From Candidatus Daviesbacteria bacterium GW2011_GWA1_41_61 (GTDB lineage Bacteria; Patescibacteriota; Microgenomatia; Daviesbacterales; UBA10151): a DNA stretch of 64,000 bases. Shown here piece after piece: positions 1-60,920 of this stretch (positions within the stretch are counted from its first letter, which is position 1; each line of letters begins with the position of its first letter). The DNA is taken from assembly GCA_000997385.1 (NCBI GenBank), contig LCBT01000004.1, forward strand, positions 8,002 through 72,001, written 5' to 3'. The notes beneath the pieces were generated by a model that saw nothing but the letters and a program-made list of their open reading frames with translations, was not told the DNA's origin and made no database searches. The position numbers and the translations under genes were made by a program.

Positions 1-80
1 AAACAGATGAGATTTAAATTAGTAACAGTTTTTGTGTTAATTATTTGCGCTGTTTAAATACCTGAAAGGAGGGAAGAAAA

Positions 81-962: not shown

Positions 963-989
963 GTTGCCCTAAATGTATTTAAATAGTTA

Positions 990-1340: not shown

Positions 1341-1560
1341 GCGCCACAGTGCGTTGTGCTGGGTAAGTTTTTTCTACCACCTTTTTAGCATACTCTAGCG
1401 CTGCCTTTACTTGATCTTCTGTTAAATCGTAATCTTCTATAATTTCTGGTACAGTTTGGCCGTTTTTGATCAAATTCAGGATTAATTCCACGGTAATTCT
1501 CGTCCCCTCAATTGTGGGCTTGCCTAACATGATATTAGGATCGGTAACGATTTTTTTCAT
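1309..1560 (-). CDS. DUF433 putative antitoxin (partner of DUF5615)
   Basis: LGKPTIEGTRITVELILNLIKNGQTVPEIIEDYDLTEDQVKAALEYA matches DUF433; six-frame track starts at TTG 1575, ATG at 1560 preceded by TGTATAAT (leaderless-like). Confidence 0.6.
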   Translation of the reverse strand: MKKIVTDPNIMLGKPTIEGTRITVELILNLIKNGQTVPEIIEDYDLTEDQVKAALEYAKKVVEKTYPAQRTVAHEIFIRRKPR

Positions 1561-1580
1561 AAAGTAATTATACAAAATTT

Positions 1581-1614
1581 GCGTTAATTTTGGCAGTAGT
1601 GTATAATACTTTCT
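1581..1614 (+). promoter_or_regulatory. sigma70-like promoter for pnp (TTGCGT-17-TGTATAAT, extended -10)
   Basis: ttgcgt taattttggcagtagtg tataat read directly; divergent from TA pair promoter. Confidence 0.35.
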
Positions 1615-1706
1615 AGGTTAGAGGTTTTGGAGATTGAAAAGAACCAATTAGTTAACTACTAGTTGCTTCTTCTGCAGTTTCCAACCCTTAACCACTTTAA
1701 TTTAAT

Positions 1707-5098: not shown

Positions 5099-6799
5099 AT
5101 GAATAAAAAATTTAGACCTCATTATGACAATAGAGCTGGAGTACTTACCCCTTTAAAGGTTATCCCTTTAGGTGGTGTGGGTGATGTGAGTAAAAATATG
5201 TATGTTTATGAGTATGGCCAGGATATTGTCATTGTTGACTGTGGGATTGGCTTTCCCGATGAAGCTATGCCTGGCATTGATTTGGTCATCCCGGACATCT
5301 CTTATTTGAAAGACAAAAAACACAAAATCCGGGGATTGGTTATTACTCATGCTCATGATGACCATATTGGCGGTATCCCCTATCTTTGGAAGGAGTTAGG
5401 TTTTCCTCCTATCTATGCTCAAAGATTGGCAGCCGCTTTTATTAAAAATAAACTGCATGAGTTTAACTTAAGCCAAAAGGGTCTTAACACCGTTAGTATT
5501 GATAGCCGTTTTAATCTGGGCCATTTTAATATCAGCTTTTATCAAGTTTCTCACTCAGTACCTGATTCAACAGGCATTGTTTTGGAAACTCCGGCTGGCA
5601 GGGTTATCCACCAGGCTGATTTTAAAGTCGATTGGACACCGATGAGTGGCCAGGTGATTGATGTGGGGAAGATTGCCCTGATGGGGGATAAAGGAGTAGC
5701 ATTGATGTTAATTGATGCTTTGAGGGTGGAAAAGCCTGGCTACACTTTATCAGAAAAAACGATTCAGCCAACTTTTGCCCGGATTGAGGCTGAAACTAAG
5801 GGTAAGGTGTTGATCACCACTGTATCTTCCAATATCGGACGGATCCAGCAGGCTATCAATGTGGCTGTAGATGCTGGAAGAAAAATTGCTTTTCTGGGTA
5901 GATCAATGGAGAGCAACTTCCAAATTGCTTGGGATTTAGGTTATCTCCAAGTTCCCTCGGGGATTGTGATTGCCCCGGAGGAGATTAAGAGGTTCCCCGA
6001 AAAGAAGTTGATGTTGATTGTGGCCGGTTCTCAAGGTCAACCCGGCTCATCTTTGTCCCGTATTGCCAATAACGATCACAAGTTTGCTTTTGTCACCCCC
6101 CGTGACAGTGTGGTTTTTTCTGCTGATCCCATTCCTTCCCGTGAAGCAGCCCAGCATGCTTTAATTGATAGGCTGACTAAATTGGGAGCCAATGTTTACT
6201 ACACCGAGATTACGGATGATCTTCATGTTTCAGGTCATGCCAGCGCTGAGGAGATAAAGATGATGATCAATCTAGCCAAACCGAAGTATCTGCTACCCAT
6301 TGGGGCTACTTTCAGACAGATGAAGGCTTTTTCTAAAATGGTCCAGCAGTTGGGGTATGAAGAAGAGAAGATTTTATTAGTCGAAGATGGCAAGGTAGTC
6401 ACCCTTAGCCAGGACAATGTTAAAGCAGATGGATTTGTGGAGGCTAAAAATGTTTATGTTGATGGACTGGGGGTGGGGGATATTGGTAGTGTGGTGTTGC
6501 GGGATAGGATGGTTATGGCCGAGGAGGGAATTGTTTTAGTCATTGTCCCGGTTGATGTCCGTACCAGCAAATTAACCGGAGAACCGGATATTGTCAGCCG
6601 GGGGTTTGTTTTTGAGAAACAATCGGAGGAGCTGTTAGATAAAGCTAAAAATATTGTTAAAGCAGCTTTAGCAGATCATCCTGATGCTGCTTTAGATTGG
6701 CGGTTTATCCGCCGCCATATTGAGGACAGTTTAGAGAAATTTTTCTATGAGGAGACCAAGAGAAGCCCGTTAATTTTGCCAGTAGTGATAGAAGTATAA
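5099..6799 (+). CDS. rnj: ribonuclease J (metallo-beta-lactamase/beta-CASP)
   Basis: HAHDDHIGG motif, about 560 aa RNase J architecture with C-terminal domain. Confidence 0.9.
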   Translation: MNKKFRPHYDNRAGVLTPLKVIPLGGVGDVSKNMYVYEYGQDIVIVDCGIGFPDEAMPGIDLVIPDISYLKDKKHKIRGLVITHAHDDHIGGIPYLWKELGFPPIYAQRLAAAFIKNKLHEFNLSQKGLNTVSIDSRFNLGHFNISFYQVSHSVPDSTGIVLETPAGRVIHQADFKVDWTPMSGQVIDVGKIALMGDKGVALMLIDALRVEKPGYTLSEKTIQPTFARIEAETKGKVLITTVSSNIGRIQQAINVAVDAGRKIAFLGRSMESNFQIAWDLGYLQVPSGIVIAPEEIKRFPEKKLMLIVAGSQGQPGSSLSRIANNDHKFAFVTPRDSVVFSADPIPSREAAQHALIDRLTKLGANVYYTEITDDLHVSGHASAEEIKMMINLAKPKYLLPIGATFRQMKAFSKMVQQLGYEEEKILLVEDGKVVTLSQDNVKADGFVEAKNVYVDGLGVGDIGSVVLRDRMVMAEEGIVLVIVPVDVRTSKLTGEPDIVSRGFVFEKQSEELLDKAKNIVKAALADHPDAALDWRFIRRHIEDSLEKFFYEETKRSPLILPVVIEV

Positions 6800-6865
6800 T
6801 TATCCTATAGTGCTTACAAGTATGATATAATACTTATAAAGTTAAAGTTTTGAGATAACTAAACT

Positions 6866-8971
6866 ATGTCTAGACGTCGTTCACCTTATTCTCTTCCTAA
6901 ACTAAAGCTGCACCAGAAAACTGTGGTGGCAGTGGGTTCTTTAGTAGCTTTAGTGCTAGCTGGCCTTTCCGGGGTGGCCCTTTTAACTGACACTCCAACG
7001 CTCAATTTTTGGCGGGAGTTTTTGCAGCAGTATTTGGGTTGGACGGCGATCTTTTCCCCAGCGCTGTTTTTAGTCACTGCCTTGGTCTTACAGAAATTTA
7101 AATGGTCAGCAGCTCAGCCTAATGTTTTGGTAGGCTTGGTAACTTTGGTGGTAGTTTTAAGTGGTTTAACTTCCCCTTTAGATTCTTCTCAGGCTGGGCA
7201 GATTGGCAATTTAGTGTGGGTAGAACTGGCCTCTCTTTTGACAAACTTTGGAGCGGGGGTAGTTTTGGCTGGAGCCTTTTTAGTGGGGGTGGTGGTGTTA
7301 TTTAATACCTCGATTACCACTATTTTAGGGATTTTTGTTCAAGGGGGGTTATTTTTAAAAGACAGAATTTTTGGGCCGATCTTGTCTTTGTTTAGCCGTG
7401 GGGAAGGTTTTGAACAAAGGAAGATCCCGATTAAAGTTTCCGGGGTGGATGATCTTAAACCTAAAGTTGCCTCAAGACAACAAGGGGCTGAAAGCCCGTT
7501 GGTTGCTGATGAATTGGTCCAAAATATAGCTGGTCAAGTGCGGATCTGGAAGTATCCGCCAGTGGCTTTGTTGTCTGATAAGATCGGTTCTGCGGCTGAT
7601 AGGGGGGATGTCAAAAGAAATGCGGCCACTATTGAAAAAACTCTGGATTCTTTTGGTATTCAAGCCCGGGTGGCGGAAGTCAATGGCGGCCCGGCAGTTA
7701 CCCAATATGCTTTAGAGATCTCTGCCGGGACCAAGATTGCTAAAATTGCCAACTTACAGCATGATATTGCTTTAGCTTTAGCTACCCCGACTGGAACAGT
7801 CCGGATTGAGGCTCCTATTCCTGGGAAATCTTTGGTAGGTATTGAGGTCCCCAACCGGTCACTGGAGGTGGTGGGTTTGAAAAGTATTTTATCTTCTGAA
7901 GAGATGACTAAAAACAAATCCAAGCTGGCAGTAGCTTTAGGGAGAGATACTTCTTCCCGTTCGGTGGTGGTAGATATTGCCAAGATGCCTCACTGTTTAA
8001 TTGCCGGGACTACTGGTTCTGGTAAATCTATTTTAATTAATGCTTTTATCACCACGTTGCTTTTTAGAAATTCCCCAGAAGAGTTAAAATTGATTTTAGT
8101 TGATCCTAAAAGAGTTGAGTTAAATAATTATAACGGTCTGCCTCATCTTTTAACCCCGGTTATCACCGAGCCAGAAAAAATCCTCTCTGCTTTAAAGTGG
8201 TCTATGGCCGAGATGGACCGCCGTTATAAGTTGTTCCAATCAGTGGGGGTGAGAAATATTGCCGGCTACAATGAGATGTCCGGTTTTCAGGCTTTGCCCA
8301 ATATTGTGATTTTAATTGATGAGTTGGCAGATTTAATGATATTTGCTCCGGTTGAGGTGGAGGCTGCCATTACCAGGATTGCTCAACTGGCCAGAGCCAC
8401 CGGTATTCATCTGGTGGTAGCAACACAGCGGCCATCAGTAGATGTGATTACGGGTTTAATCAAAGCCAATATCCCCTGCCGGATTGCTTTCAATGTTTCC
8501 TCAATGATTGATTCCCGGGTGATTATTGATCAGCCAGGAGCAGAGAAGCTGTTAGGCCGAGGTGATATGTTATTCCTCCCTCCTGATGCTTCCAAGCCCA
8601 TACGTATTCAAGGAGTTTTTGTCTCTGATGCTGAGATTAACAACCTGATTTTTTACTTAAAAGAGTTAGGCATTGCTCCCCAGTACACAACTGAGGTGAC
8701 AGAAATGCCATTAGGTAGGATGGGGAAGGGTGGGGACTTTGGAGATCGGGATGAATTATTTGAAGAAGCAGTCAGGACTGTCTGTCAGTATGACCGGGCT
8801 TCAGCTTCACTGCTACAAAGAAGGCTCAGGGTTGGATATGCCCGGGCTGCCAGGATGTTAGATGAATTGGAGGAATCTGGAATTGTTGGTCCAGGGGAGG
8901 GATCAAAACCCAGAGATGTCTTAGTCAGAAACGCTGAGGAATACCTTGCCCAAAGAGGAGGTTCAGAATAG
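6866..8971 (+). CDS. ftsK: DNA translocase FtsK/SpoIIIE
   Basis: N-terminal 4 TM helices, linker, motor domain with Walker A GTTGSGKS, C-terminal gamma winged-helix (LLQRRLRVGYARAARMLDELE). Confidence 0.9.
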   Translation: MSRRRSPYSLPKLKLHQKTVVAVGSLVALVLAGLSGVALLTDTPTLNFWREFLQQYLGWTAIFSPALFLVTALVLQKFKWSAAQPNVLVGLVTLVVVLSGLTSPLDSSQAGQIGNLVWVELASLLTNFGAGVVLAGAFLVGVVVLFNTSITTILGIFVQGGLFLKDRIFGPILSLFSRGEGFEQRKIPIKVSGVDDLKPKVASRQQGAESPLVADELVQNIAGQVRIWKYPPVALLSDKIGSAADRGDVKRNAATIEKTLDSFGIQARVAEVNGGPAVTQYALEISAGTKIAKIANLQHDIALALATPTGTVRIEAPIPGKSLVGIEVPNRSLEVVGLKSILSSEEMTKNKSKLAVALGRDTSSRSVVVDIAKMPHCLIAGTTGSGKSILINAFITTLLFRNSPEELKLILVDPKRVELNNYNGLPHLLTPVITEPEKILSALKWSMAEMDRRYKLFQSVGVRNIAGYNEMSGFQALPNIVILIDELADLMIFAPVEVEAAITRIAQLARATGIHLVVATQRPSVDVITGLIKANIPCRIAFNVSSMIDSRVIIDQPGAEKLLGRGDMLFLPPDASKPIRIQGVFVSDAEINNLIFYLKELGIAPQYTTEVTEMPLGRMGKGGDFGDRDELFEEAVRTVCQYDRASASLLQRRLRVGYARAARMLDELEESGIVGPGEGSKPRDVLVRNAEEYLAQRGGSE

Positions 8972-9292
8972 ATGATAGCTCAAGCACAAGCATTAAGGCT
9001 ACAATCCCGGATTGAAAGCACTTTTAATGTGTGTTTGCTTTTATCAAACTTCCGATGTTCGATTTTAATTGCCCCTGACATTTATGATTGATTCTTCTAT
9101 AGAAGGGAAACTGGTTGGGTAGCAGAATTCAGTTTAGAAATTATTCTGATAGACCAACAGTTTTAGGAAGGTTACTGCCGGATTCAATAACCTTAACAGC
9201 TAAGCTTTATTTAGAAGATATTGTTACCTCTGGAAAACGATAAAAGATGATTTACCGGTTCTTAAAGAACAGATTAGAAAGATAAAATCTTA

Positions 9293-10255
9293 TTAATACT
9301 GGGGGGTTTGGTTGGTAGGTGTTTGGGGAGTGGGAGGTAGAGTGGTTTCAGAAGAGGGAGCAGTAGGAGCAGGGAAAGAGGAAGAAGGAAGGGAATAAGT
9401 GGGTTGGGGAGCAGGTGAAATCTCAGGTGGAGTATAGGAAGGTTGGGAAGAGTAGTGGCCAGAAAAATCATTTAATAGATCAGCTACCCCTTTTTGATCT
9501 CCCGAGGGAGGTGCAGCGCTAAAATTTGTCTCAGATGGTGCAAATGGTGCAAACGGTGTTTCACCAGGCTGGGGGATAGTAGGGCTGATTGTTGTATCTT
9601 GCGGAAGCTGAGATATTTGTAAAGCAGGTTCTGCAGCTGGAGGAGTCTCTAGTCTGGGAATAGGCTCTTTGGCTATCTCCTGCAGATCTTCTTCTAAGGT
9701 ATCTGAGGCCTCAATTTTTTGTAAGACCTCATCAACAGGAGTCATCATTTCTGCAAACCGCTTCTCCTCTTCCTCTTTCCTTCTCCTTTCTACCTGCTCG
9801 TCAGCAGTAGTTTTAAACCTTTTAAACTGTTCCTGGGTTAAGTGCATATAAGCTAATATAATTTTTTCACTGCAGCCGTCTCTTATATCCTGAAGATTGG
9901 TAAAAAGCATGATATAAAAATCCTGGCCGGTCTCCGGTTGTTTACTGTGGCTGATTTCGACATGGTACTGTTTAAGTTCCATCCGGTAATGATCTTCAAT
10001 GGCGCTGGGATCAAATTGAGCTAAATCAGTATGATTAACCAGCAGTTTATTTTGATTGATCAGCTTGATCAGTTGGGAGAGATATTTTTCTGCCTTGGCA
10101 GAGTCACCACTGGGTGGAGGCAGATGGGCCATTTGAGATTTATCTTTGGGGTTGGAAATATCGGGCATTGGAATTATCTTACGAAGGTCAGGGCAAAAAG
10201 TCAACGGCAATAGTGCTATAATTTCGTAAGAAATTACTGTTCCGCATCCCGACAT
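9293..10255 (-). CDS. hypothetical protein with Pro/Ser/Thr-rich C-terminal low-complexity tail
   Basis: N-terminal about 190-aa globular part with acidic coiled coil, C-terminal about 120 aa P/T/S/Q-rich; true start may be the internal Met (MPDISNPKDK). Confidence 0.5.
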   Translation of the reverse strand: MSGCGTVISYEIIALLPLTFCPDLRKIIPMPDISNPKDKSQMAHLPPPSGDSAKAEKYLSQLIKLINQNKLLVNHTDLAQFDPSAIEDHYRMELKQYHVEISHSKQPETGQDFYIMLFTNLQDIRDGCSEKIILAYMHLTQEQFKRFKTTADEQVERRRKEEEEKRFAEMMTPVDEVLQKIEASDTLEEDLQEIAKEPIPRLETPPAAEPALQISQLPQDTTISPTIPQPGETPFAPFAPSETNFSAAPPSGDQKGVADLLNDFSGHYSSQPSYTPPEISPAPQPTYSLPSSSFPAPTAPSSETTLPPTPQTPTNQTPQY

Positions 10256-10305
10256 ATATCAGGAGAGGACTATAATTTTTCCTGAATTGACAGGATTATT
10301 ACCTT

Positions 10306-10944
10306 ATGCATACTGTGGGCCAGATTTTAAAAGAAACAAGAGAAGTCAAACTTTATACTTTAGAAGAGGTAGAAAAAGCGATCAAGATTAGAAAAGAACT
10401 TTTAATAGCCCTGGAAAAAGATGATTACTTAAAGCTTCCTCCCCCCACCTTTGTTAGAGGTTTTATCAGAAACTATGCCAAGTTTTTAGATTTGGATGGA
10501 GAGAAGCTGTTGGCTATCTATAGGAGGGAATTTTCCGAGAAAAAACACAAGCCTTATATTATGGATGCTTTTGTTAACCCAGTTAAAAAAAGGAAGCTAG
10601 ATATTACTCCCAGTAGGGTTTTAGGAGGGGTGGTATCTTTGATGATTATCACCTTTTTTGTTTACCTTTGGTTACAGTACCGCCAGTTTATTGGTCCTCC
10701 ACCGCTGACTGTGATCTCCCCTTCTGATCAGTTGACCACAGATAACCCCACGGTGATGGTGGAAGGCAAAACTGATCCGGAGGTGGTGGTGATGGTCAAC
10801 AGTCAGGAGATCCCAGTAGACAGCAGTGGAGAGTTTCAAAAGGAGATTACTTTATCCTCTCAAGTAAATAAATTAACTATTGTGGCTACTTCCAAATTTG
10901 GGCAAAAAACAGCACTTGAAAAAGTGGTTTATCTTAAGAGATAA
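10306..10944 (+). CDS. rodZ: RodZ-like cytoskeleton protein (XRE HTH + TM + C-terminal domain)
   Basis: N-terminal LGQILKETRE...IRKELLIALEKDDYLKLPPPTFVRGFIRNYAKFLDLD matches RodZ HTH region; single TM; C-terminal beta-rich domain. Confidence 0.6.
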   Translation: MHTVGQILKETREVKLYTLEEVEKAIKIRKELLIALEKDDYLKLPPPTFVRGFIRNYAKFLDLDGEKLLAIYRREFSEKKHKPYIMDAFVNPVKKRKLDITPSRVLGGVVSLMIITFFVYLWLQYRQFIGPPPLTVISPSDQLTTDNPTVMVEGKTDPEVVVMVNSQEIPVDSSGEFQKEITLSSQVNKLTIVATSKFGQKTALEKVVYLKR

Positions 10945-21600: not shown

Positions 21601-21691
21601 GGGTTGTAAGTTATACCAGGATCCAGGATAGATGATCACTTGATTGACACCAATCCCTCTTTGTGAGTTAATAAAAGTAGTGTCAAAGAAG

Positions 21692-24600
21692 ATGAATCCG
21701 TCTGAAACAAAACTAAATTCTATCCTCAGTAAACTCTCCTCCCAGCAAAATAAAAAGAGAAAGGTTGCTATTTTAATCTTCTTCCTTAGCTTAATTTCCT
21801 TTCTATCAATAACCACCTTTTCTCCCTTTAAAGATAAACTCTTTTCTTCTCTTTATCCCAAACGTTTTTCCTTTGCTGCTGGAAATACTTATTATGTTGC
21901 TACCATTGGTTCTGACTCAAATACCGGAACCATTGATCAACCCTGGCGTACTGTAAAGTATTCTTTGTCTAAACTTCAACCCGGTGATACCCTTTATCTT
22001 AGAGGTGGTACTTACTATAATGAAGGCGGTACTACCATCAGTTTGAAAGGTGCATCCACCAGTTGGATTATCTTACAATCCTACCCCGGAGAAAGGGCAA
22101 TCATTGACGGAGGCGTACCTGATTTTAGCAATGCTCCCAATAATGCCTGGGAACTGGTTGATTCCTCAACCGGCCTTTACAGGAGCGTAAGCAGCAATTT
22201 CAGCGGTTCTGATCTTTCCAGTAATGCCACGTTGGGCGGCTGGCTTCTTGATTCCAACACCCAACTTGTTCATTACGGCCATTCTACCAGCGAAAATCCT
22301 GATTCTTTAAACTCCCAGAACTATACTGTCAGTAAATTTAATCCTGTCTACATCGGGCCGGGTGTCCAGCTAAGAGGCGATGGTCATATATACATTCGTT
22401 TAACTCCCAATTCTTATAATCAAATTGCCCAGGATGGAAGCACCCTGCCGCAAATTCCCGCTGATACTAATCCCAACAACAACCGCATTTCGATCTTTAA
22501 TACCAGCACCCTTTATACTCTTAGCGGTGCCAGTTATCTGGCATTTAAAAATATTGATTTTGTTCACGCCGTTAAACTCTTTGATCTTCAAAACAGCACG
22601 AATCACATTCTTTTTGACCAAGATAAATTTAAATTTGGTTCATACGGCATCAACACCGAACCTACCTCGGGAACTTCTGATATTGAGGTAGCTTCCAGCG
22701 AATTTACGAACGGAGTACCTGACTGGTTGCGCTGGACCGACACTAAAAATATCGCTTATGATAGCTCTCCCGCTTATCCTGAGTTCCAATCAGTAGCCAT
22801 AGACGGCACTCCTTCGAATTTCTACATACACGACAATTATATGTACCGCCTCTTTGATGGTCTTCACTTTAAGGATGGGACGGCAAACACACAGTTTATC
22901 AACAACGTAATCGCTTTAAGCCACGATGATGCGTTTGAAATTAATCCTACGGTGCAAAATGTGGAGATTGCTCATAACATAATGCGCCATGTCCATAACG
23001 GTTTTGGCGTCAACCGCAGCAGCAGCTGTACCGGAGTGGGGGTTATCAATATGCACCATAATGTTATGGATACCTCAATGCCACAGCGCCAAGGCAGGGA
23101 AGGCAACTCCCGAATTTCTCAATATCCTCTCTGGTCACCCTATTCTCCTTTTGCCTCACACGGCAGCGGCTGTGATACCTACAAACTACGTTTTTACAAC
23201 AACACAATTGTGGGACGAAGGGCGACCAGCAGTTCTGATTCCTTAGGACCGAGAAACATGACCGCCTCCACAGACCTTTATGTCTACAACAATCTCTGGT
23301 ATGCCATCAATAATGTGAGCGCACTTTCTAACCATCAGGAAAGCTCTGGCGCTCACTATGACGGTGAAGCTTTCTGGCAGTCTAACCCTTCCGGTCAATC
23401 TTTACTTTTAAATTTCGGAAATGGCAGCAGTTTCACTTCTCTTTCCAGCTACACTTCAACAATCGGAACTACCTGGTTAAAATCAGGTATTCAAACCGAC
23501 CCGGGATTTTCTCTTTCTGCTATTGATTCTAATAACTATGACCCTGCGACAGTATGGAGCATTTATCAACCAACAAACCCTGCATTTTTTACTACCGAAG
23601 TTGACACCACAGGTCTGGGTTGGCCTGAGGCAGATGGCATTACTTACCGGGGGGCAGTTGGATTAAATTCTACACCCGCTGCAATAAACACCCCTTCTCC
23701 TACTCCTATTATTTCTACACCTACTCCTACTTCCCAACCCACTGCTACTCCTACCCCCACTCCTACTCCCAAACCTACTACTACACCCATTCCTATCTCT
23801 ACTCCCACGCCAACCTCATCTCCTTCAGATGCAGTAACCTTTAATCCTGTAGCCGACAGTTTCGTCGAGGCCTCCTATCCTGATAAAAACAATGGCAGTA
23901 GCAGTGCCTTGGGGGTTGATGGAAGTCCTATTGAAATAAGCTATCTCAACTTTGATTTTGGATCTTTAGCAGGTAAAACTGTTACTTCGGCAAAACTTCG
24001 TATATATTTAACAAATTTCTCCACAGGAACCCAAAATATTAAGTCAGTTACAAATACCAGTTGGAGTGAATCCAGCTTAACTTACAACAATAAGCCAACA
24101 ACCGGGACGACAATAGCTTCATTTGCCGGTAACAGTTCCAGTACCTGGAAAGAGGTTGATTTAACTCCATTTCTATCTGATAAAGCAGGACAAACCTTTT
24201 CCTTAGCAGTTGAACAGTCAGCTACAGATGGAATTGATTTCTCGTCTCGGGAAGCAATGAACAAACCTCAAATTGTAGTAACTTTAGCTGGCGGGATTAC
24301 AGGAAATACCTCTTCTCTGTTACCTACAGCTGATGCCGAAGTTGAGAAAAACTATCCTGATAAAAACTATGGCAGTTCAACTGCTTTAGAGGTAGATAAC
24401 AGCCCGGTAGAGATAAGTTATCTTAAATTTAATTTAACTCCTTTTGCAGGAAAAGAGATTGTTTCTGCTAAATTAAAACTAAGAGTCAGGAATTCTTCCA
24501 GCGGCATACAATATGTCAGACTTGTTGAAGATACAATTTGGAGTGAATCCAGCTTAACCTACAATAACAGGCCGCAAGCTTCAACTACAATCACCCAGTT

Positions 24601-24778
24601 AAATGGAGGAAAAAGTAGCACCTGGATTGAGATTGATGTAACTTCTGCAGTTTTGACAAAGCTTGGAGGATATCTCTCCCTCCTGGTTGATTCAACCTCA
24701 AGTGATGGTTTTGGTTTTTATTCAAAAGAAGCTTCAACATCAACATATAGACCGACATTAATTATTACAAATAAGTGA
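21692..24778 (+). CDS. secreted/surface right-handed beta-helix (pectate-lyase-fold) protein with Pro/Thr linker and two C-terminal carbohydrate-binding-like (DNRLRE-type) repeats
   Basis: Signal anchor; GNTYYVATIGSDSNTGTIDQPWRTVKYSLSKLQPGDTLYLRGGTY N-cap typical of beta-helix proteins; PT-rich linker (TPTPTSQPTATPTPTPTPKPTT); two about 150-aa repeats sharing YPDKN.GSS.AL.VD.SP.EISYL.F....AGK...SAKL......W.ESSLTYNN.P. Confidence 0.6.
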   Translation: MNPSETKLNSILSKLSSQQNKKRKVAILIFFLSLISFLSITTFSPFKDKLFSSLYPKRFSFAAGNTYYVATIGSDSNTGTIDQPWRTVKYSLSKLQPGDTLYLRGGTYYNEGGTTISLKGASTSWIILQSYPGERAIIDGGVPDFSNAPNNAWELVDSSTGLYRSVSSNFSGSDLSSNATLGGWLLDSNTQLVHYGHSTSENPDSLNSQNYTVSKFNPVYIGPGVQLRGDGHIYIRLTPNSYNQIAQDGSTLPQIPADTNPNNNRISIFNTSTLYTLSGASYLAFKNIDFVHAVKLFDLQNSTNHILFDQDKFKFGSYGINTEPTSGTSDIEVASSEFTNGVPDWLRWTDTKNIAYDSSPAYPEFQSVAIDGTPSNFYIHDNYMYRLFDGLHFKDGTANTQFINNVIALSHDDAFEINPTVQNVEIAHNIMRHVHNGFGVNRSSSCTGVGVINMHHNVMDTSMPQRQGREGNSRISQYPLWSPYSPFASHGSGCDTYKLRFYNNTIVGRRATSSSDSLGPRNMTASTDLYVYNNLWYAINNVSALSNHQESSGAHYDGEAFWQSNPSGQSLLLNFGNGSSFTSLSSYTSTIGTTWLKSGIQTDPGFSLSAIDSNNYDPATVWSIYQPTNPAFFTTEVDTTGLGWPEADGITYRGAVGLNSTPAAINTPSPTPIISTPTPTSQPTATPTPTPTPKPTTTPIPISTPTPTSSPSDAVTFNPVADSFVEASYPDKNNGSSSALGVDGSPIEISYLNFDFGSLAGKTVTSAKLRIYLTNFSTGTQNIKSVTNTSWSESSLTYNNKPTTGTTIASFAGNSSSTWKEVDLTPFLSDKAGQTFSLAVEQSATDGIDFSSREAMNKPQIVVTLAGGITGNTSSLLPTADAEVEKNYPDKNYGSSTALEVDNSPVEISYLKFNLTPFAGKEIVSAKLKLRVRNSSSGIQYVRLVEDTIWSESSLTYNNRPQASTTITQLNGGKSSTWIEIDVTSAVLTKLGGYLSLLVDSTSSDGFGFYSKEASTSTYRPTLIITNK

Positions 24779-34454: not shown

Positions 34455-34688
34455 ATGGATAAATTAAGTTTGGAAAAGATTAATATGTGGAAGGGAAAAC
34501 TGCAAAAACTCCAAAAAGAGTACGAGGAGATTATGCAAAAAAGAGGTGAAGCCATGCAGATGGGAGATCTGAGAGAGAATGCTGCTTTCCAATCTTTATC
34601 TGAAGATGCTGATACCTGGCGGGCCAGAATGGAAGAGCTAAAAAATATTATTACCAAACTGGAACATGAAAACCCGGGAGCCAAATAA
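34455..34688 (+). CDS. Gre-factor N-terminal coiled-coil domain-only protein (77 aa)
   Basis: [30 protein letters not shown] aligns to GreA [30 protein letters not shown] incl. acidic tip D..E; no C-terminal FKBP-like domain; strong SD; TAATG overlap with fusA. Confidence 0.7.
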
Positions 34689-36829
34689 TGGCTGTAGCAA
34701 CTCAAACCAAAAGGGATTTTCCCTTAGATAGAATTAGAAATATCGGCATCATCGCCCATATTGATGCTGGAAAAACTACCACCACCGAAAGAATCCTTTT
34801 TTATACCGGTAGAACTTATAAAATCGGCGATATTGATGAGGGTACTACCACTACTGACTGGATGGAGCAGGAAAAAGAGAGGGGAATCACCATTGTTTCC
34901 GCTGCCATTACTACTTTTTGGATCCCTAAATCTGGGCCTTTTGAGGGTCAGGAAACCAGAATTAATATTATCGATACTCCGGGGCACGTTGACTTTACTG
35001 CTGAGGTAGAAAGGTCACTGCGGGTTTTAGACGGGGGAGTAATTGTGCTGGATGCAGCTTCCGGTGTTCAATCCCAAACTGAAACTGTCTGGAGACAGGC
35101 TAACAAATATAAAGTCCCTTTAGTGGCTTTTGCCAACAAGATGGATGTGGTGGGGGCAGATTTTTTAGCTACCATCCAATCAGCCAGAGATAGGTTAGGA
35201 GCCAATGCCTTGCCTTATAATCTGCCGATTGGCAGTGAAAATGATTTTAAAGGGGTGGTTGATCTTTTAACTAAAAAAGCCTATATCTGGGAGGGTGATC
35301 AAACTGGAGCCAAGTTTAATGAAGCAGAGATTCCTGCCCGGATGGTTGATCTGGTTGCTACCTGGCGGGATAAGTTGGTGGAAGAGATCTCCGGGACTGA
35401 TGATGTCTTGATGGAAAAGTATTTGAATGGGGAAGAGATCAGTGTTGAGGAGCTTAAAAAATCCTTAAGACAAGCGGTCATTGATAATAAAATTGTCCCA
35501 GTAATGGCTGGGTCATCTCTTAGGAATAAAGGTGTCCAGCCGATGCTGGATGCAGCAGTAGAGTTTTTGCCTTCCCCTCAGGATGTTTCGGAAGTGGTAG
35601 GAGAAAATCCCCGTTCCGGTGAACAAGAGATTAGAAAAGCTGACCCTAAATCCCCTTTGTCAGCCTTAGCTTTTAAGATTCAAGTTGATCCCCATGTGGG
35701 GAAGCTAACTTATCTGCGGGTTTATTCGGGGACTATTCAATCTGGTTCTTATCTTTATAACTCCTCCAAAGGCATTAAAGAAAGAGTCGGTCGCTTAATG
35801 TTGATGCATGCCAATGACCGGGAGGAGATTGAGGAAGCTTACGCCGGAGAGATTGTGGCAGCAGTGGGCTTAAAAGAGACTATTACCGGCAACACTTTAT
35901 GTGATGAAAACGCCCCGATTGTTTTAGAGTCCATTACTTTTCCTGATCCGGTGATCTCTTTAGCTATTGAACCTAAAACCAAATCTGACCAGGAAAAATT
36001 AGGCACGGCACTATCAAGGTTATCAGAAGAAGATCCTACCTTCAGAGTCAAAGTCGACCAGGAAACCGGCCAGACCATTATTGCCGGAATGGGAGAGTTA
36101 CAGCTGGAGGTGCTAGTAGATAGGATGAGGCGGGAGTTTAAAGTGGAGGCTAATGTCGGCCAACCTCAAGTAGCTTATAAAGAGACTATCACTCAAACTG
36201 CCAGCGGTGAGGGTAAATACATCCGTCAAACTGGAGGACGGGGTCAATACGGGCATTGTTTTCTAAGAATTGAACCTCTTCCCCGGGGGCAAGGCCGGGA
36301 GTTTGCCTCAGCGATTGTTGGCGGAGCCATACCTCGGGAGTTTATCCCAGCTATTGAAAAGGGGGTTTTAGAAAAAGAAGATACCGGTATTTTGGCAGGT
36401 TATCCTGTCACCGATATTAAGGTGGCAGTTTATGATGGATCTTTCCATGATGTGGATTCTTCAGAGATGGCTTTTAAGATTGCCGGTTCCCTAGGGCTTT
36501 CTGAAGCTGCCAAAAAGGCTGAAATGGTGTTACTTGAGCCTATCATGAAGGTGGAGGTCACCACTCCGGAGGAGTTTTTGGGAGACATGATTGCTGATTT
36601 ATCTTCTAAAAGGGCGCAGATTCAATCTACGGAGATGAGAGGTAATGCCAGGGTAGTACTAGCTTTAGTTCCCTTAGCTGAGATGGGTGGTTATGCTACT
36701 ACTATCAGAAGTATGTCTCAAGGAAGAGCTACTTACTATATGGAAGCAGATCACTATGAGGAAGTTCCCAAAAATATTACCCAAAAGATCGTTGAATCCT
36801 CCGGCTTCACCGGCAGGGTAGAACACTAA
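34688..36829 (+). CDS. fusA: elongation factor G
   Basis: 713 aa, G-domain motifs [21 protein letters not shown]. Confidence 0.97.
36800..36829. repeat. direct repeat copy A (3' end of fusA, tccggcttcaccggcagggtagaacactaa)
   Basis: 29/30 identical to 39097-39126. Confidence 0.85.
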
Positions 36830-36834
36830 AAAAG

Positions 36835-39042
36835 TTACTTTTTCTCTTTAAGCTTAACTCCTGCAATAATCATAGCCTCAATGAAAGATTGTCTACCTTC
36901 TGCAGTAACAACGTCTATAATCTTAGATATATTCTTTCTTTTTTCAAAATATTCGGGGTGTTCTTGCTCTAACCTAGCCTTTACCTGCAAGGCTATTGAA
37001 GATAGTCGAGATTCCCTACCCGTAAAAATTAGATGTAGGATGGACTGCGTTAGTGGCAAATCTGCTTCACGAACTTGCTGAATAGTAGTGTCTTTTAGTT
37101 TTTCCCCTGCAGCTACCATTGCGTTAATAAATATTTGTCTACCTTCAAAGGTGACTGCGTCTACTATAAAAGACCCGTTCATTCTTTTTTTAAAATATTC
37201 AGGGTACTCGCTCTCTAATCTCTCTTTTACCTCTTTAACTCTTAGTGATAACCTTGTTCCATCACCTATAAAAACCAATTTTACACTCTCCCATGTTAAA
37301 GCCATATCTGTATCCTTAAGTTCCTGGATATCTTTGTCTTGCAGCGCTATACCCGCGGCTAACATTTCTTCAATAAAAGCTTGTTTGCCTTCAAGGGTAA
37401 CGATTGAGATCACATTCGGCCCACTCCTTCTTTTAGAAAAATATTCTGGATGCTCAGTTTCCATTCTTGTTTTTACTTGTAGGGCCAGAGGAGATAACTT
37501 CTCAAACCCGCCCCTAAAGACCTCTGTCAAACCAGCATGCGATAGTGGGATTTCTCCAGCTATAACATCTATTAGTAACCCCTTCCCAAGATCTGAAATA
37601 TCTACCGAGTCGCCTTTCCTTCTTATGTTTTGCACTACATCAAGTTCAGTTAATCCTGCAATGTCCTGCTCGGGCCCAAGGTATAATAGACCACTCGGTA
37701 GTTGTCTAACACTTCCTTTCATCCACATACCCATGTTATATGACCAGCCATATTGATTGGTTTGGTAGAGGAAGTCTAGATTAAGACCAAATAATTTACC
37801 TTCAAAGCGGCGAGCTAGTCTTCCAACGTATTGGGTATAACGTAGGTCGGAATCGGTAGGAGAAGCCCAAACTAAAACTTCAGTAAATGGAGCATCAAAT
37901 CCTTCTGATGCAACATAGGGAGATATTAAAACCTGAATGGAACGAGGGTCGCTTTGTGCAAGTTTATATCTTTCAATAGTGTCGAGAGCTGGAATTTCCT
38001 CATTATGAATTTGTCTTGCAGCTTGCTGGTTGACAGCAACACCTACCTTAATACCTTTAGCATTTAGAAGTTGTGCCAATTCTTGAGCCTCCCAGACAAA
38101 GTTTACAGCCACAACAGTTTTGTATTCTTTTTCACCATCTCTGATGATATTTGCAACCTTATCTGCAATAAATGGCCTCAGTTCTGGACTTTTCTTTAAA
38201 ATTTGCTCGAGCTTTCGATAATCAATCTGTCCATTTAGTTTAGTGGGGATCTCTTCTACTAGACCTGTTGTATTAATTTGCATTCCCAAAAGAGGAGGAA
38301 GTAATCTTGACTCTTGTGCTTCGGGCAAAGGGAAATTATAAGCAACCTCAAAACCATATTGTTCTGGCCTCTTCATTTGACCACTGTGTCTGTGGGGAGT
38401 AGCAGTGAACCCTATTACATTTGGGAATTGACAAACTGCGGAAGCTCGTTGAGCGGTTCCGATATTGTGAACCTCGTCAACAATCACTAAATCAAATTCT
38501 GCTGGATCAAGCTGACCTCTTTTGTAGGCTGATTGAATAGTTTGGATTGTTGCCACTCTCACATCGACGTCTTTATCCTTAAATCTTCCTACCCGATAAA
38601 ATGGAAGATCCTCTTGTTCGATTTCAAGAACTTCCTCGACGTCCTCTGTTTCTGTGGTATCTCTTTCTAACTCCTCTGACTCAGTATAGTCAACATAGTC
38701 AACACCACCATTAGATTCTTCTTGATACCTTATTAAAGCAGCATGCGCTTGTTGCACTAAAGTCAACTTTGTTCCGGCGATAAAAAGTACTCTTGCTCCA
38801 GGGTTTCTGCTTCTCCATCTTTCAATAACTTCATGCTCAACCCTTGTTTTACCGATACCTGTTGCCATAGCAGCGATAGGAAAATGGCTGCCTACTTCTC
38901 TTCTCTCAAGATGATCTAAAACTGTCTGAGCTGCCTCATACTGTTTTTGGTCTAACAGGGTTTGTAAATCTGGGGTCAGAAGACCATCTCCACCAACCTC
39001 ACCTGTCAAGCCACGAATTTTTTGCTCACCACTTCTTTCCAT
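36835..39042 (-). CDS. SF2 DEVH-box helicase (ResIII/COG1061-like) with three C-terminal about 80-aa tandem repeats
   Basis: Motif I ATGIGKT, motif II VIVDEVHN, motif III GFTATP, motif VI QYVGRLARR; C-terminal triple repeat (L.VK.RLE.EHPEYF.KR......D.VT.EG.Q.FI.AM..AG.KL); six-frame track ORF runs to 39123 through repeat copy B, start probably ATG 39042 preceded by tgatataat. Confidence 0.75.
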   Translation of the reverse strand: MERSGEQKIRGLTGEVGGDGLLTPDLQTLLDQKQYEAAQTVLDHLERREVGSHFPIAAMATGIGKTRVEHEVIERWRSRNPGARVLFIAGTKLTLVQQAHAALIRYQEESNGGVDYVDYTESEELERDTTETEDVEEVLEIEQEDLPFYRVGRFKDKDVDVRVATIQTIQSAYKRGQLDPAEFDLVIVDEVHNIGTAQRASAVCQFPNVIGFTATPHRHSGQMKRPEQYGFEVAYNFPLPEAQESRLLPPLLGMQINTTGLVEEIPTKLNGQIDYRKLEQILKKSPELRPFIADKVANIIRDGEKEYKTVVAVNFVWEAQELAQLLNAKGIKVGVAVNQQAARQIHNEEIPALDTIERYKLAQSDPRSIQVLISPYVASEGFDAPFTEVLVWASPTDSDLRYTQYVGRLARRFEGKLFGLNLDFLYQTNQYGWSYNMGMWMKGSVRQLPSGLLYLGPEQDIAGLTELDVVQNIRRKGDSVDISDLGKGLLIDVIAGEIPLSHAGLTEVFRGGFEKLSPLALQVKTRMETEHPEYFSKRRSGPNVISIVTLEGKQAFIEEMLAAGIALQDKDIQELKDTDMALTWESVKLVFIGDGTRLSLRVKEVKERLESEYPEYFKKRMNGSFIVDAVTFEGRQIFINAMVAAGEKLKDTTIQQVREADLPLTQSILHLIFTGRESRLSSIALQVKARLEQEHPEYFEKRKNISKIIDVVTAEGRQSFIEAMIIAGVKLKEKK
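36838..37497 (-). repeat. three tandem about 240-bp coding repeats (helicase C-terminal modules)
   Basis: Protein-level repeats of 84, 82 and 54 aa with shared EHPEYF.KR / EG.Q.FI.AM motifs. Confidence 0.5.
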
Positions 39043-39096
39043 GAGGCTAATTATATCAGAAGGTATTAGAGCATACAAATTATAGGATATCTGACT

Positions 39097-39126
39097 TCCG
39101 GCTTCACCGGCAGAGTAGAACACTAA
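39097..39126. repeat. direct repeat copy B (tccggcttcaccggcagagtagaacactaa)
   Basis: Duplicates last 9 codons + stop of fusA with 1 mismatch, 2297 bp downstream of copy A. Confidence 0.85.
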
Positions 39127-39132
39127 TATTGG

Positions 39133-39161
39133 TGTTGACTAAACGTACGGAATAACGTACA
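39133..39161 (+). promoter_or_regulatory. sigma70-like promoter TTGACT-17-TACAAT with CGTACG dyad, 8 nt before the Phd/YefM-like ATG
   Basis: ttgact aaacgtacggaataacg tacaat; acgtac repeated twice (possible autoregulatory operator). Confidence 0.5.
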
Positions 39162-39169
39162 ATACCCTC

Positions 39170-39367
39170 ATGACTACAGTTTCTGCCACAACTGCCAGAG
39201 AAAAATTATATGATCTCATTGAAGAGGTGAATAGGTCTGGGAAAATGATTGGTATTACTAACAGGGGGGTGTTAAAAGCTGTATTGATTAGTCAAAAGGA
39301 ATACGAGTTCATGGTGAATATTGTTTTTAAGATATCAAAAAGAGAGTTAAAAAATGTAAGATTTTAG
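39170..39367 (+). CDS. Phd/YefM-family antitoxin-like protein
   Basis: TTAREKLYDLIEEVNRSGKMIGITNRGVLKAVLISQKEYEFM matches Phd/YefM N-terminal fold consensus. Confidence 0.65.
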   Translation: MTTVSATTAREKLYDLIEEVNRSGKMIGITNRGVLKAVLISQKEYEFMVNIVFKISKRELKNVRF

Positions 39368-39368
39368 A

Positions 39369-39920
39369 GTGGCTCAATCTAATTTCTGGACCATTGCTGA
39401 CAATTTACCACCAAGACCTGATTGTTTAGTAGTTATATCCTACTCTGTTAAAGATAAAAGTGAACCTACAAGACAAACCAAAGCTTTAATAAAAGAAGCT
39501 TTTGGATGGTGGAAAAAATTTCCCCAAGCTAAAATTATTATGTCTACTGGAGATAATCAGGGACTAGGATTGCCTAATTCTAAAGTCATGGCAGACTATG
39601 GTGTTAGTCTAGGTCTTCCCAGGAAAAATATTATTGAGGAGGAGAAATCTCAAGATACTTATGAGAACCTACTTTATTCCAGGAAGATTATTCAAAAAGA
39701 GGGGTTTAAACAACCTACCTTAGTAGTTTTAGATCTTCATAGTAGAAGAGCTCTAGCCCTAGCCAGAAAGTTGAGCTGGAAAAATTTCTACTGGATAACT
39801 GTTTTTAGTCAAGGTGAATCAGGATATGGGAAAAAAGCTCTCCAGACTTCCTCCCGCCCTGTGATCTTAATCTATGAGATGCTAGCTTATGTTTATAATA
39901 TGCTAAAAGGAGAGTTATAG
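39369..39920 (+). CDS. DUF218/YdcF (SanA/ElyC)-like domain protein
   Basis: DCLVVIS...AKIIMSTGD...MADYGVSLGLPRKNIIEEEKSQDTYENLLYSRKII...LVVLDLHSRRA matches DUF218 motifs; GTG start 1 nt after Phd-like stop. Confidence 0.65.
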   Translation: MAQSNFWTIADNLPPRPDCLVVISYSVKDKSEPTRQTKALIKEAFGWWKKFPQAKIIMSTGDNQGLGLPNSKVMADYGVSLGLPRKNIIEEEKSQDTYENLLYSRKIIQKEGFKQPTLVVLDLHSRRALALARKLSWKNFYWITVFSQGESGYGKKALQTSSRPVILIYEMLAYVYNMLKGEL

Positions 39921-59582: not shown

Positions 59583-60920
59583 CTAAGTTAATTTGGGATC
59601 GTTAATAATCCCCATAAATAAAATGGTTTCTAAGCGGTTATCCCTGACGGCAAAGAAAAAAGGTTTATTAATTTGTATAGAAAATGGTTTGGCTGCTTTA
59701 TCAGGGGTTTGCATACTACTAACACCGGAAGCATTTATCCCTTCTTCACTGACCTCAATATAAGTTTTCTGTTTGACTGTACTAAGATATATATCTTTAG
59801 CTAGGTTATCAAAATTAGCCTTGGCCCCAAAAGCTATCCCCATCCCTAAGTTAATCAGAGGATTCTTTAACTCTTTCTCATATTCCATTTTAAATTTAGG
59901 TAAAATAATTGTCCCTTCTGTTTCCCTAAATTCTTCCATCCACCCATTCCAACTTTGAGCACTTAAAGTGGCAGTAAACTGTTTTAACCCATATTTGGGT
60001 AAAAAAAGATACATACTAAACCTACCCTCTTGCCCATAAGGGAGATCTATGGCCTGAAAATCATCATTTTCTAAATATTTAAAGGTCCCTTTTTGCTCCA
60101 TCATCGGATGTTGCTTTTTTAATTTATTGGCTGCAGTGAAGTCTTGATCTTTGGTTAGTTTTTTATCAAACTCCTTTGTCCAGATTCCTTTAAAATAAAC
60201 AGCATTAATAAGATATAAAACAGTATTTTTAGGAAATGGAGAGCTGACAATTTGGGCAATTTTGTTTTTAGTGTTTTCTTTTACCCAATTATTAATAGTG
60301 GCAGCAGCATTTGGTTGAGTAAAATCTAAATTTTTGACTTGAGCCTGGTAGTATTTTTGGTTGGTATCTATAAAATCTTGATTAAACTTTATATCCTTCT
60401 TTCCCCAAATAGAGTTAGCAACAGAGATTTCTACTTTAGGGTCAGTACTTTTTAAAATATTTAACAGATCCTGGTTGTTTTTGTTCAAATCTTCTTTAAA
60501 AATATCTTGAATATTTAAAGTTTGGGTTAGGGCATCTTTGGTTTGGTCTAAAGCTCCTTGGTAAACCATGGAAAGGGCTAAAGAGATGCCCGAGGGGGAA
60601 ATAAAGATATTTTTTAAAGAGTCAACTTTGACAAGTTCTTGGAAAAGTTTAAAGCTAAAGTTATTTTGAGCCGAGACAAATTTTTGGTCTAACCCAGGAG
60701 GCAATAATGGGGGAGTAGGATCCTTCTTTATCTGGGTTACTCCGGGTTGGGATTTCGGAGTGATTGGCTTATGTTTAGGAATAGAGGAGAGTTTGTTGAC
60801 TAAAGAAGGATGGTTGGCTTTAAGATAAAAAGCCCCTCCTACTATGGAGGCAGAGGTAATAAATAGACCAACGATAAAAAGAATCAAGGCAAAACCCGTC
60901 TGGTATTTGGGCAGATCCAC
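59583..60920 (-). CDS. membrane-anchored serpin (serine protease inhibitor)
   Basis: Serpin hinge/RCL SEEGINASGVSSMQTPDK and C-terminal FFFAVRDNRLETILFMGIINDP signature; N-terminal TM anchor + Pro-rich linker. Confidence 0.8.
   Translation of the reverse strand: MDLPKYQTGFALILFIVGLFITSASIVGGAFYLKANHPSLVNKLSSIPKHKPITPKSQPGVTQIKKDPTPPLLPPGLDQKFVSAQNNFSFKLFQELVKVDSLKNIFISPSGISLALSMVYQGALDQTKDALTQTLNIQDIFKEDLNKNNQDLLNILKSTDPKVEISVANSIWGKKDIKFNQDFIDTNQKYYQAQVKNLDFTQPNAAATINNWVKENTKNKIAQIVSSPFPKNTVLYLINAVYFKGIWTKEFDKKLTKDQDFTAANKLKKQHPMMEQKGTFKYLENDDFQAIDLPYGQEGRFSMYLFLPKYGLKQFTATLSAQSWNGWMEEFRETEGTIILPKFKMEYEKELKNPLINLGMGIAFGAKANFDNLAKDIYLSTVKQKTYIEVSEEGINASGVSSMQTPDKAAKPFSIQINKPFFFAVRDNRLETILFMGIINDPKLT

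Follow-up and report, generated by a model that had tools for sequence, protein, structure and literature searches.

What does a solitary helicase do when its gene sits at the end of fusA, within the core operon of a groundwater bacterium with a very small genome? Patescibacteria have tiny genomes from which many canonical genome-maintenance proteins are absent, and the majority of proteins peculiar to these lineages lack an assigned function. The question is raised by a 64,000-nucleotide stretch of Candidatus Daviesbacteria bacterium GW2011_GWA1_41_61 (contig LCBT01000004.1, positions 8,002 to 72,001; hereafter the window), in which a superfamily 2 (SF2) helicase gene occupies positions 36835 to 39042 of the (-) strand. 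Public databases list the helicase under the name 'Type III restriction protein res subunit' (for example, KKR79925.1) or, at NCBI, also as 'hypothetical protein', and an earlier note on this DNA, made by reading the sequence, had described the gene as an island helicase with a defense flavor. Here we describe an intact SF2 motor followed by three copies of a repeat domain, and the small, lineage-restricted family to which it belongs. The account we favor, and which we give even chances of being right, is a stand-alone, array-guided DNA translocase or helicase that would act in chromosome maintenance or related housekeeping rather than in defense, its gene having been inserted at fusA.

An intact SF2 motor with two family-specific segments

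The helicase is a protein of 735 amino acids (aa). RecA-like domain 1 (aa 30-218; 38389-38955) is recognized by Pfam ResIII with 77 bits against a cut-off of 22.5 (E = 2e-21), and RecA-like domain 2, which is Helicase_C-like (aa 296-411; 37810-38157), scores just under the threshold of that model (20.9 bits against 23.5). Translation places motif I, ATGIGKT, at aa 60-66 (38845-38865), motif II, DEVH, at aa 189-192 (38467-38478), motif III, TATP, at aa 213-216 (38395-38406) and motif VI, QYVGRLARR, at aa 404-412 (37807-37833), all on the (-) strand. These four motifs are invariant in a family alignment of 60 sequences, in which the motor is strongly conserved, with about 70 invariant columns. 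Translation and the ResIII match thus confirm the earlier assignment to SF2 helicases of the ResIII/COG1061 type with all motifs in place.

The two-lobed motor fold was upheld by an AlphaFold model and by its Foldseek matches to RadD and Hef, the former also supporting the assignment of domain 2. The full-length model has a predicted local distance difference test (pLDDT) score of 84 and is weak only at an acidic insertion in domain 1 (aa 108-148; 38599-38721, (-) strand), which carries a net charge of -17, falls below pLDDT 50 for aa 112-140 and is probably disordered. RadD was the best Foldseek match of the full model (E = 7e-15, ~22% identity over ~430 columns), followed by LlaBIII, SauUSI, LGP2, Hef and HsdR. 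The best match of the motor among PDB sequences was SauUSI (7clg; 3.3e-14), and the best partial matches in NCBIfam were Hef, EcoAI-R and RadD. Most of the motor's best matches act on DNA, LGP2 being an RNA binder. Profile scans with Pfam, PADLOC and NCBIfam detected no nuclease, methylase or other effector domain in the protein.

Two further segments mark the family. Near the N-terminus, G-x-TG..DG-x-LT (aa 11-20; 38983-39012, (-) strand) is almost invariant both in the family alignment and in a sister clade described below. Past domain 2, an aromatic and methionine-rich segment (aa 419-456, LDFLYQTNQYGWSYNMGMWMKGSVRQLPSGLLYLGPE; 37675-37788, (-) strand) contains invariant or near-invariant columns from D423 to G456 and is also recognizable in the sister clade; within it, WSYNMGMWMK is almost invariant across the family and sister clade together. 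Neither segment had a counterpart in the described helicase families examined, and WSYNMGMWMK and G-x-TG..DG-x-LT may prove the most useful marks by which to define the family, and the most useful targets for mutagenesis.

A predicted C-terminal domain outside Pfam and PDB

The C-terminus is made up of three exactly tandem repeats with a period of 246 nt, or 82 aa, all encoded on the (-) strand. Repeats 1 (aa 490-571; 37330-37575) and 2 (aa 572-653; 37084-37329) are supported by translation, a repeat hidden Markov model (HMM) and BLASTP, and repeat 3 (aa 654-735; 36838-37083) by translation and a single-repeat AlphaFold model. In BLASTP, repeats 1 and 3 are 48% identical (E = 4e-27) and repeats 2 and 3 are 53% identical (E = 7e-29), a likeness far beyond chance. 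The earlier description of three tandem C-terminal repeats of about 80 aa was therefore accurate. We refer to this unit as the type A module. The repeats diverge faster than the motor, at 45-58% against ~67% identity with the nearest homologues, and positional orthology with the repeats of those homologues extends to repeat 1 only.

Modeled on its own with an alignment of 44 diverse repeats, repeat 3 reached a pLDDT of 94.6. The predicted fold begins with a short strand and helix 1 (7 residues), continues through a turn that bears a nearly invariant F-x-G to helix 2 (18 residues), which ends at the conserved proline of the EHPEYF motif, and closes with a beta-hairpin, helix 3 and a short strand. 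None of the 44 repeats had a meaningful Pfam match, and across aa 457-735 no Pfam family fell below E = 0.008 and none rose above its cut-off. A search of PDB sequences with the type A profile yielded nothing below E = 0.18. Foldseek with the single repeat gave no significant neighbor in PDB (best E = 0.45, template modeling (TM) score below 0.45) or in BFVD (best E = 0.15); the highest BFVD TM score, 0.57, belonged to a Fusobacterium phage antirepressor and was likewise not significant (E = 0.8). The earlier note had been unable to place the module in a known family and had pointed to structure prediction as a way forward. The model is now a confident one, and comparison with Pfam, PDB sequences and predicted or solved structures still leaves the module without a family, so that type A is best regarded, on the evidence of the model, as a confidently foldable domain of ~80 residues that is new to Pfam and PDB.

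Two known domains were considered and rejected. The beta-alpha-alpha-beta-beta-alpha order, with a glycine lying between the first two helices, suggested a KH type I domain, but the GxxG loop is missing, Pfam gives no KH match, and no KH protein appeared among the 50 best Foldseek matches listed. HRDC, or another known C-terminal helicase domain, was ruled out by the lack of any Pfam match in aa 457-735.

A small family with exchangeable arrays

A homologue search of 5.8 billion proteins listed 120 matches, in 81 of which the repeat HMM found between 2 and 7 type A repeats; full-length relatives are 40-68% identical to the helicase described here, and some matches are fragments. Three and four repeats were the most frequent numbers among these 81 (28 and 30 proteins, respectively), followed by five (15), two (5), six (2) and seven (1). 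The source names, where given, were Levybacteria, Blackburnbacteria, Daviesbacteria or Patescibacteria (group), and the helicase family is confined to Microgenomates-type Patescibacteria. An exhaustive search of 1.84 billion representative proteins with the type A profile matched only 74, of which ~60 are members of the helicase family or their fragments. A literature search for the family in Patescibacteria returned nothing relevant. In one Levyibacteriota locus (L015, 5998-8126) the family helicase is split into two overlapping open reading frames (ORFs), 5998-7785 and 7734-8126, which represents a frameshift, a pseudogene or an assembly error.

The few type A modules outside the family keep distinctive company. 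A different helicase of the ResIII/SWI2_SNF2 kind (P0152) carries one at its C-terminus, as does a protein with a sub-threshold LAGLIDADG domain and two homing-endonuclease-associated repeats (P0149). Six N-terminal repeats of ~84 aa in a 1,713-aa SNF2 ATPase (P0156) match positions 3-60 of the type A profile, and P0155 is an array of five classical helix-turn-helix (HTH) repeats that share an ...ESHPEYF-x-RR... segment with type A. Three further proteins, P0159-P0161, are composed of '...FVG...VWAF' repeats similar to those of P0156.

A sister clade of helicases (P0083-P0091) carries a different array on a recognizably similar motor. Their motors are 33-38% identical to that of the window helicase and share both family-specific segments, and at the position of the type A array they bear 4-7 repeats of ~62 aa with the consensus GDWL...LG-x-S..WV...L......E-x-R.....HYPP. 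The repeats of one sister-clade member, P0089, exceed the Pfam thresholds for KorB HTH and HTH_23. Two proteins bridge the types: P0057, whose motor is 54% identical to the window helicase, has an intermediate repeat with SHPEWF, and P0157 joins two HTH-type repeats and then one type A repeat in a single array. Profile comparison with hhalign linked the P0155-type repeats to the P0057-type (96.5% probability, 61 columns) and to the sister-type (91%, 56 columns). Type A itself aligned to the P0155-type at 91%, but over 22 columns only, around (E/S)HPE(Y/W)F-x-R. Given the sister-clade arrays, P0057, the mixed array of P0157 and the hhalign links, we read the C-terminal arrays as interchangeable on one conserved motor, and the repeat types other than type A as HTH domains. 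Homology of type A to the type B repeats was sought with hhalign, which gave no sign of it (probabilities of 1-2%).

Sister-clade loci share a second feature. In all three examined, a sigma-70-family gene stands divergently next to the helicase gene (L019 1991-3457, L020 3901-5352 and L021 4380-5840, each on the (-) strand). The encoded protein, of ~485 aa, has sigma regions 2, 3 and 4 and a C-terminal tail of ~210 aa. We searched these sigma factors, tail included, for the helicase repeat modules and found none shared.

Genomic contexts of relatives and the question of defense

The family gene is solitary and lies at a different place in almost every genome, in about 14 contexts that are mostly housekeeping. 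It adjoins rpsB-tsf-frr in L001 and NUDIX-recA-recX-rny, with HhH-GPD and UDG genes upstream, in L003; it lies directly upstream of rpoBC in L006, after an ATP-dependent DNA ligase gene and an Xth-like nuclease gene in L012, between a penicillin-binding protein gene and dprA in L013, and near PolX and a sigma factor in L029, the sigma-70 gene being two genes away. L21/L27 translation genes are found at the L008 locus and UvrD near the gene in L010, and in other relatives the gene follows ftsZ, follows secA or, in one case, adjoins a PemK pair. Neither a conserved partner gene nor a nuclease or methylase partner emerged in the ~14 contexts; the sole methyltransferase, a small protein of the Methyltransf_11/23 type in L010, is three genes away and on the other strand. 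No helicase neighbor in L012-L021 is homologous to any gene of the window, and no family member stands beside fusA there. Five of the contexts (L003, L012, L013, L010 and L029) together give a weak lean toward DNA metabolism. The L008 locus also encodes, at 1-3170 (+) and three genes from the family helicase, a giant protein of 2,057 aa with SNF2 helicase domains and sigma-70 regions 2 and 4.

PADLOC returned only partial matches to the motor domain, from its type IV restriction (mREase_IV), PbeA and type I models; the mREase_IV match (9.7e-16) covers positions 286-564 of a 953-position profile. In IMG/VR and among GenBank phages no family member was found, only generic helicases of ~25% identity. 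The motor-only PADLOC matches, the lack of an effector domain and of a partner gene, the housekeeping contexts and the absence from viral collections together leave the defense flavor that the earlier note had given this gene without support. The same note would have taken its reading as refuted by a repeat that matches a well-known domain together with housekeeping contexts in relatives: the latter was found, the former was not. Taken at face value, the automatic 'Type III restriction enzyme' label would place the gene among defense genes in error, and our analysis removes it.

A gene bracketed by a duplication of the fusA end

The gene order in this part of the window is rpoB, rpoC, rpsL, rpsG, a 77-aa GreA_N-like ORF, fusA, the helicase gene, a copy of the fusA end, a Phd/YefM gene, a DUF218 gene, tuf and rpsJ, with the helicase on the strand opposite to fusA. 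A repeat search showed that the last 9 codons and the stop of fusA (SGFTGRVEH*; copy A, 36800-36829, (+) strand) recur as a direct repeat at 39097-39126 (copy B, (+) strand), with 29 of 30 positions identical and the sole difference, AGG to AGA, synonymous. Such a likeness is expected 0 times by chance (100 shuffles). The copies bracket a helicase segment of 2,267 nt (36830-39096), and the relative L024 aligns to copy B as well. The predicted empty-site junction would be fusA followed directly by TATTGGTGTTGACT....

The EF-G encoded in the window matches that of Candidatus Daviesbacteria bacterium GW2011_GWA1_41_61 with 100% identity, and the two closest relatives, L024 and L025, have EF-G proteins 90-91% identical to it. 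Between fusA and tuf, L024 carries a 77-aa ORF (8281-8514), and L025 (spacer 8199-10329) carries a 272-aa ORF, a DUF218 gene with 84% nucleotide identity to the window copy and a 128-aa ORF; neither spacer holds a helicase. The fusA DNA of L024 and L025 is only ~77-82% identical to that of this genome, and therefore neither provides a strain-level empty site. This turnover of cargo marks the rpsG-fusA and fusA-tuf spacers as variable slots, in effect insertion hot spots within a core operon, and the segment 36830-39096 as an insertion in this lineage. The term 'island' used in the earlier note can thus be kept in a narrow sense: a 30-nt duplication of the fusA end brackets the gene, and the two closest relatives lack a helicase between fusA and tuf.

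No recombinase was found in the insert, which holds one gene, or in its neighbors fusA, the Phd-family gene and DUF218; further odd ORFs of the window were scanned and yielded none, and there is no tRNA within the window. The GC content of the helicase segment is like that of its surroundings, and flanking direct repeats were absent around the helicase gene at three other loci. A search of metagenome contigs with the 30-nt repeat gave 0 matches, in a collection that evidently lacks the contigs of this genome.

The rpsG-fusA spacers of L024 (4089-5698) and L025 (4393-5619) hold differing cargo, toxin-antitoxin pairs among it. Overall, the spacers of Daviesbacteria str operons contain toxin-antitoxin pairs (Gp49/HTH and Phd/ParE), genes for an HD-domain protein and a signal peptidase, and hypothetical ORFs.

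Start codon and transcript of the helicase gene

The mechanically called ORF runs from 36835 to 39123 on the (-) strand and encodes 762 aa from a GTG, whereas a start at ATG 39042 gives the 735-aa product. In an N-terminal alignment of 60 homologues, the start of 28 falls in the column of M1, and that of 43 lies within 2 residues of it. This clustering of starts identifies ATG 39042 as the true start, and the coding sequence accordingly as 36835-39042; the 27 codons upstream (39043-39123), which traverse the fusA-end copy at 39097-39126, are a spurious 5' extension. The earlier note had proposed both this start and the artificial lengthening of the ORF by 27 codons through copy B, and the alignment agrees with it on each point.

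An extended -10-like box, TGATATAAT, can be read at 39058-39050 on the (-) strand, 7 nt 5' of ATG 39042; it was missed by a promoter scan that looks for two hexamers. The start is not preceded by a Shine-Dalgarno sequence. The proximity of the promoter-like box to the ATG and the lack of a Shine-Dalgarno sequence suggest that the helicase mRNA is leaderless or nearly so.

At the other end, the stops of the convergent fusA and helicase genes are 5 nt apart (36827-36837) with no terminator in between. The sole terminator-like hairpin for the helicase transcript lies within the coding end of fusA (36804-36781) and is weak, and transcriptional collision or antisense overlap of the two genes is possible. 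An ORF of 222 aa on the (+) strand (37088-37756) was dismissed as a shadow ORF of the repeat region; its sole 'homologue' is antisense to another family member.

Neighboring genes in the window

Just past copy B, at 39135-39163, is a sigma-70-like promoter that matches well (TTGACT-17-TACAAT). At 39170-39920 (+) follows a Phd/YefM-family antitoxin gene (65 aa; Pfam 1.8e-11), and 1 nt after it, in place of a recognizable toxin, comes the DUF218/ElyC-like gene (183 aa). In L025 the DUF218 gene is not preceded by a Phd gene.

On the other side of fusA, an ORF of 74-77 aa ends at the fusA start in the window (34455-34688, (+) strand), in L024 (5777-6001) and in L025 (5774-6001). Likeness to the N-terminal coiled coil of GreA/GreB was detected for the window ORF (3.7e-07) and weakly for that of L024, and the L025 ORF had no Pfam match. 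As it is present in the window and in both relatives, it appears to be a genuine small gene belonging to the str operon of Daviesbacteria. Farther off, two genes are unusual company for a ribosomal-protein gene cluster in so small a genome: one encodes a full-length serpin (59583-60920, (-) strand; Pfam 6e-110), the other a protein of 1,044 aa that contains two CBM96 carbohydrate-binding modules (21644-24778, (+) strand).

What the helicase may do

We propose that the protein is an intact, ATP-driven SF2 nucleic-acid translocase or helicase of the ResIII/DExH type, RadD/XPB-like, in whose family one conserved motor is combined with exchangeable arrays: 2-7 type A modules here, HTH modules in sister branches and a mixture in one member. 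The modules would bind nucleic acid, most likely DNA, and so keep the motor tethered to, or guided on, its substrate. The helicase would work alone, in DNA remodeling of the chromosome or in a repair or recombination-type process, outside any defense system, and its gene, with its own promoter-like box, would have been inserted at the fusA stop into the fusA-tuf spacer, duplicating the last 30 nt of fusA. This DNA-guided reading of the array follows from the DNA-associated companions of the type A module, namely the other helicase, the SNF2 protein, the homing-endonuclease-like protein and the HTH arrays. From the domain company described above we infer that type A modules bind DNA, and we likewise infer a role for the helicase in genome maintenance.

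Several observations weigh against this proposal. The mean net charge of type A is only ~+0.9 (-3, -1 and +3 for the repeats of this protein), and hydrophobic or structural residues account for most of its conserved positions (F20, G22, P43, M71 and G75). Foldseek with the type A model yields no winged-helix neighbor, and hhalign finds no significant similarity between type A and either a pooled HTH-type profile (2%) or the type B repeats (1%). DNA-repair neighbors could arise by chance in very small genomes, and genes for transcription lie nearby too, with rpoBC in L006 and sigma-70 genes both in L029 and at all three sister-clade loci. The Foldseek matches of the fold also take in RIG-I-like and DEAD-box RNA helicases. 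Finally, at 50% identity the family amounts to 74 clusters, too few for a universal core gene.

The neighborhood of transcription genes points toward one alternative. RapA, Mfd and HelD act on RNA polymerase or transcribed DNA in other bacteria, and the helicase could be a translocase of that sort, with its repeats docking on promoter DNA or on the transcription machinery. The divergent sigma-70-family gene at every sister-clade locus would fit, as would type A members directly upstream of rpoB-rpoC, two genes from a sigma-70 gene and three genes from the giant SNF2-sigma70 fusion, and the related half-modules of the SNF2 protein P0156. Sigma adjacency is limited to the sister clade, however, and since L020 and L021 appear closely related when their sigma-factor sequences are compared by eye, three of three may overstate independence; moreover, most type A contexts contain no transcription gene, the sigma factors do not carry the repeat modules, and no Pfam similarity to the RNA polymerase-binding domains of RapA, Mfd or HelD was found. 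We consider a transcription role unlikely. The same can be said of an RNA helicase or ribonucleoprotein remodeler, for example in ribosome biogenesis, whose repeats would recognize structured RNA in the manner of DbpA/YxiN, which has a C-terminal RNA-binding domain. Fold matches to LGP2/MDA5, DbpA and mitoribosome-assembly helicases (E ~1e-10), translation genes beside several loci (fusA/tuf here, rpsB-tsf-frr in L001 and L21/L27 in L008) and the near-neutral charge of the repeats are all compatible with RNA, but in both sequence and fold the protein comes closest to DNA enzymes (RadD, Hef and restriction-enzyme motors), the module is found alongside DNA-associated domains (SNF2, LAGLIDADG-like/HNH-repeat and HTH arrays), and the gene lies within the str operon in this genome only, as an opposite-strand insertion.

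An anti-phage helicase in a small island, acting alone or with unlinked partners and using a fast-evolving array to sense foreign nucleic acid or protein, is quite improbable. ResIII-type motors are common in restriction and defense, as the partial PADLOC matches to mREase_IV, PbeA and type I R subunits reflect; repeat number and type vary, and the repeats outpace the motor in divergence; and the gene sits in a variable slot beside a Phd-family antitoxin gene, with toxin-antitoxin pairs in the equivalent spacers of relatives. Against these stand the lack of any nuclease, methylase or other effector domain, of a conserved partner in contexts that are mostly housekeeping, of PADLOC matches beyond the motor and of relatives on viral contigs, together with the ~70 invariant columns of the motor. 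Least probable, and indeed very unlikely, is a selfish single-gene cassette that targets the 3' end of fusA, with the helicase as cargo or as part of the mobility apparatus. The duplication encloses a single gene that comes with a promoter-like box of its own, the two copies of the repeat differ by one synonymous base, the gene is missing at the site in close relatives, and Daviesbacteria-like helicases are only 46-47% identical where EF-G is 85% and RpoB 77% identical; yet no integrase, transposase or other recombinase lies in or beside the insert, the window has no tRNA, none of three other loci has flanking direct repeats, no family member was found beside fusA elsewhere, and the GC content matches the surroundings.

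The array-guided DNA translocase that we favor also has a more ambitious version, which we regard as decidedly unlikely. In this modular, 'programmable' translocase, arrays would read an extended DNA (or RNA) address, much as zinc-finger or TALE arrays do, and deliver the motor to specific chromosomal sites, such as promoters in view of the sister-clade sigma-factor neighbor. Exposed helix residues would vary from repeat to repeat, and type A would be a new nucleic-acid-reading fold specific to the Candidate Phyla Radiation (CPR).

The results define a coherent, lineage-restricted helicase family with a domain outside Pfam and PDB, the same motor being coupled to interchangeable repeat arrays. 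Should the modules turn out to read nucleic acid, the family would show in compact, natural form how a modular array can target a motor; otherwise it would count as a lineage-specific helicase of the ordinary kind that has an accessory domain. What is new is the repeat domain and the modular array architecture in a CPR lineage. The SF2 motor itself is ordinary, and no new kind of system is indicated.

Comparison with known systems

The best structural match of the motor, and a sequence match as well, is RadD (YejH) of Escherichia coli (PDB 7r7j, 6jde and 8h5y); both proteins are stand-alone members of SF2 that lack a nuclease. RadD speeds RecA strand exchange and binds SSB, its binding partner being the SSB C-terminal tail (PMC8887467, PMC10238739). 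The two proteins nevertheless differ: RadD has no repeat array, the acidic insertion and the aromatic segment after domain 2, which is unique, belong to the window helicase, and the NCBIfam RadD model NF053632 scores the window helicase at 45.2 bits against a cut-off of 720. The single cysteine (C204) among the 735 residues of the helicase is also telling. RadD has a cysteine-based zinc-binding motif, and a protein with one cysteine cannot have a motif of that type. The bit score and the single cysteine rule out a RadD orthologue.

Restriction enzymes such as SauUSI (type IV, PDB 7clg), LlaBIII/LlaGI (type ISP) and HsdR (type I) have a ResIII-type motor in common with this helicase. Their alignment to it is confined to the motor, however, and the window helicase has no PLD or PD-(D/E)xK nuclease, methylase, target-recognition domain or partner genes.

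In architectural logic, a motor followed by tandem auxiliary domains of ~80 aa, a parallel is RecQ of Deinococcus radiodurans. That enzyme carries three tandem C-terminal HRDC domains of ~80 aa, which vary in number between species and modulate nucleic-acid binding. HRDC is all-helical and recognized by Pfam, whereas type A has a predicted beta-hairpin and no Pfam match, and the motor of the window helicase is not RecQ-like. The sister-clade helicases P0083-P0091 share with it the motor with its two family-specific segments, at 33-38% identity, and the position and tandem nature of the array. The HTH arrays of these proteins and of P0155 are built of repeats of 62-72 aa that pass Pfam HTH models; type A, at 80-82 aa, passes no HTH model and shows no significant full-length similarity to them.

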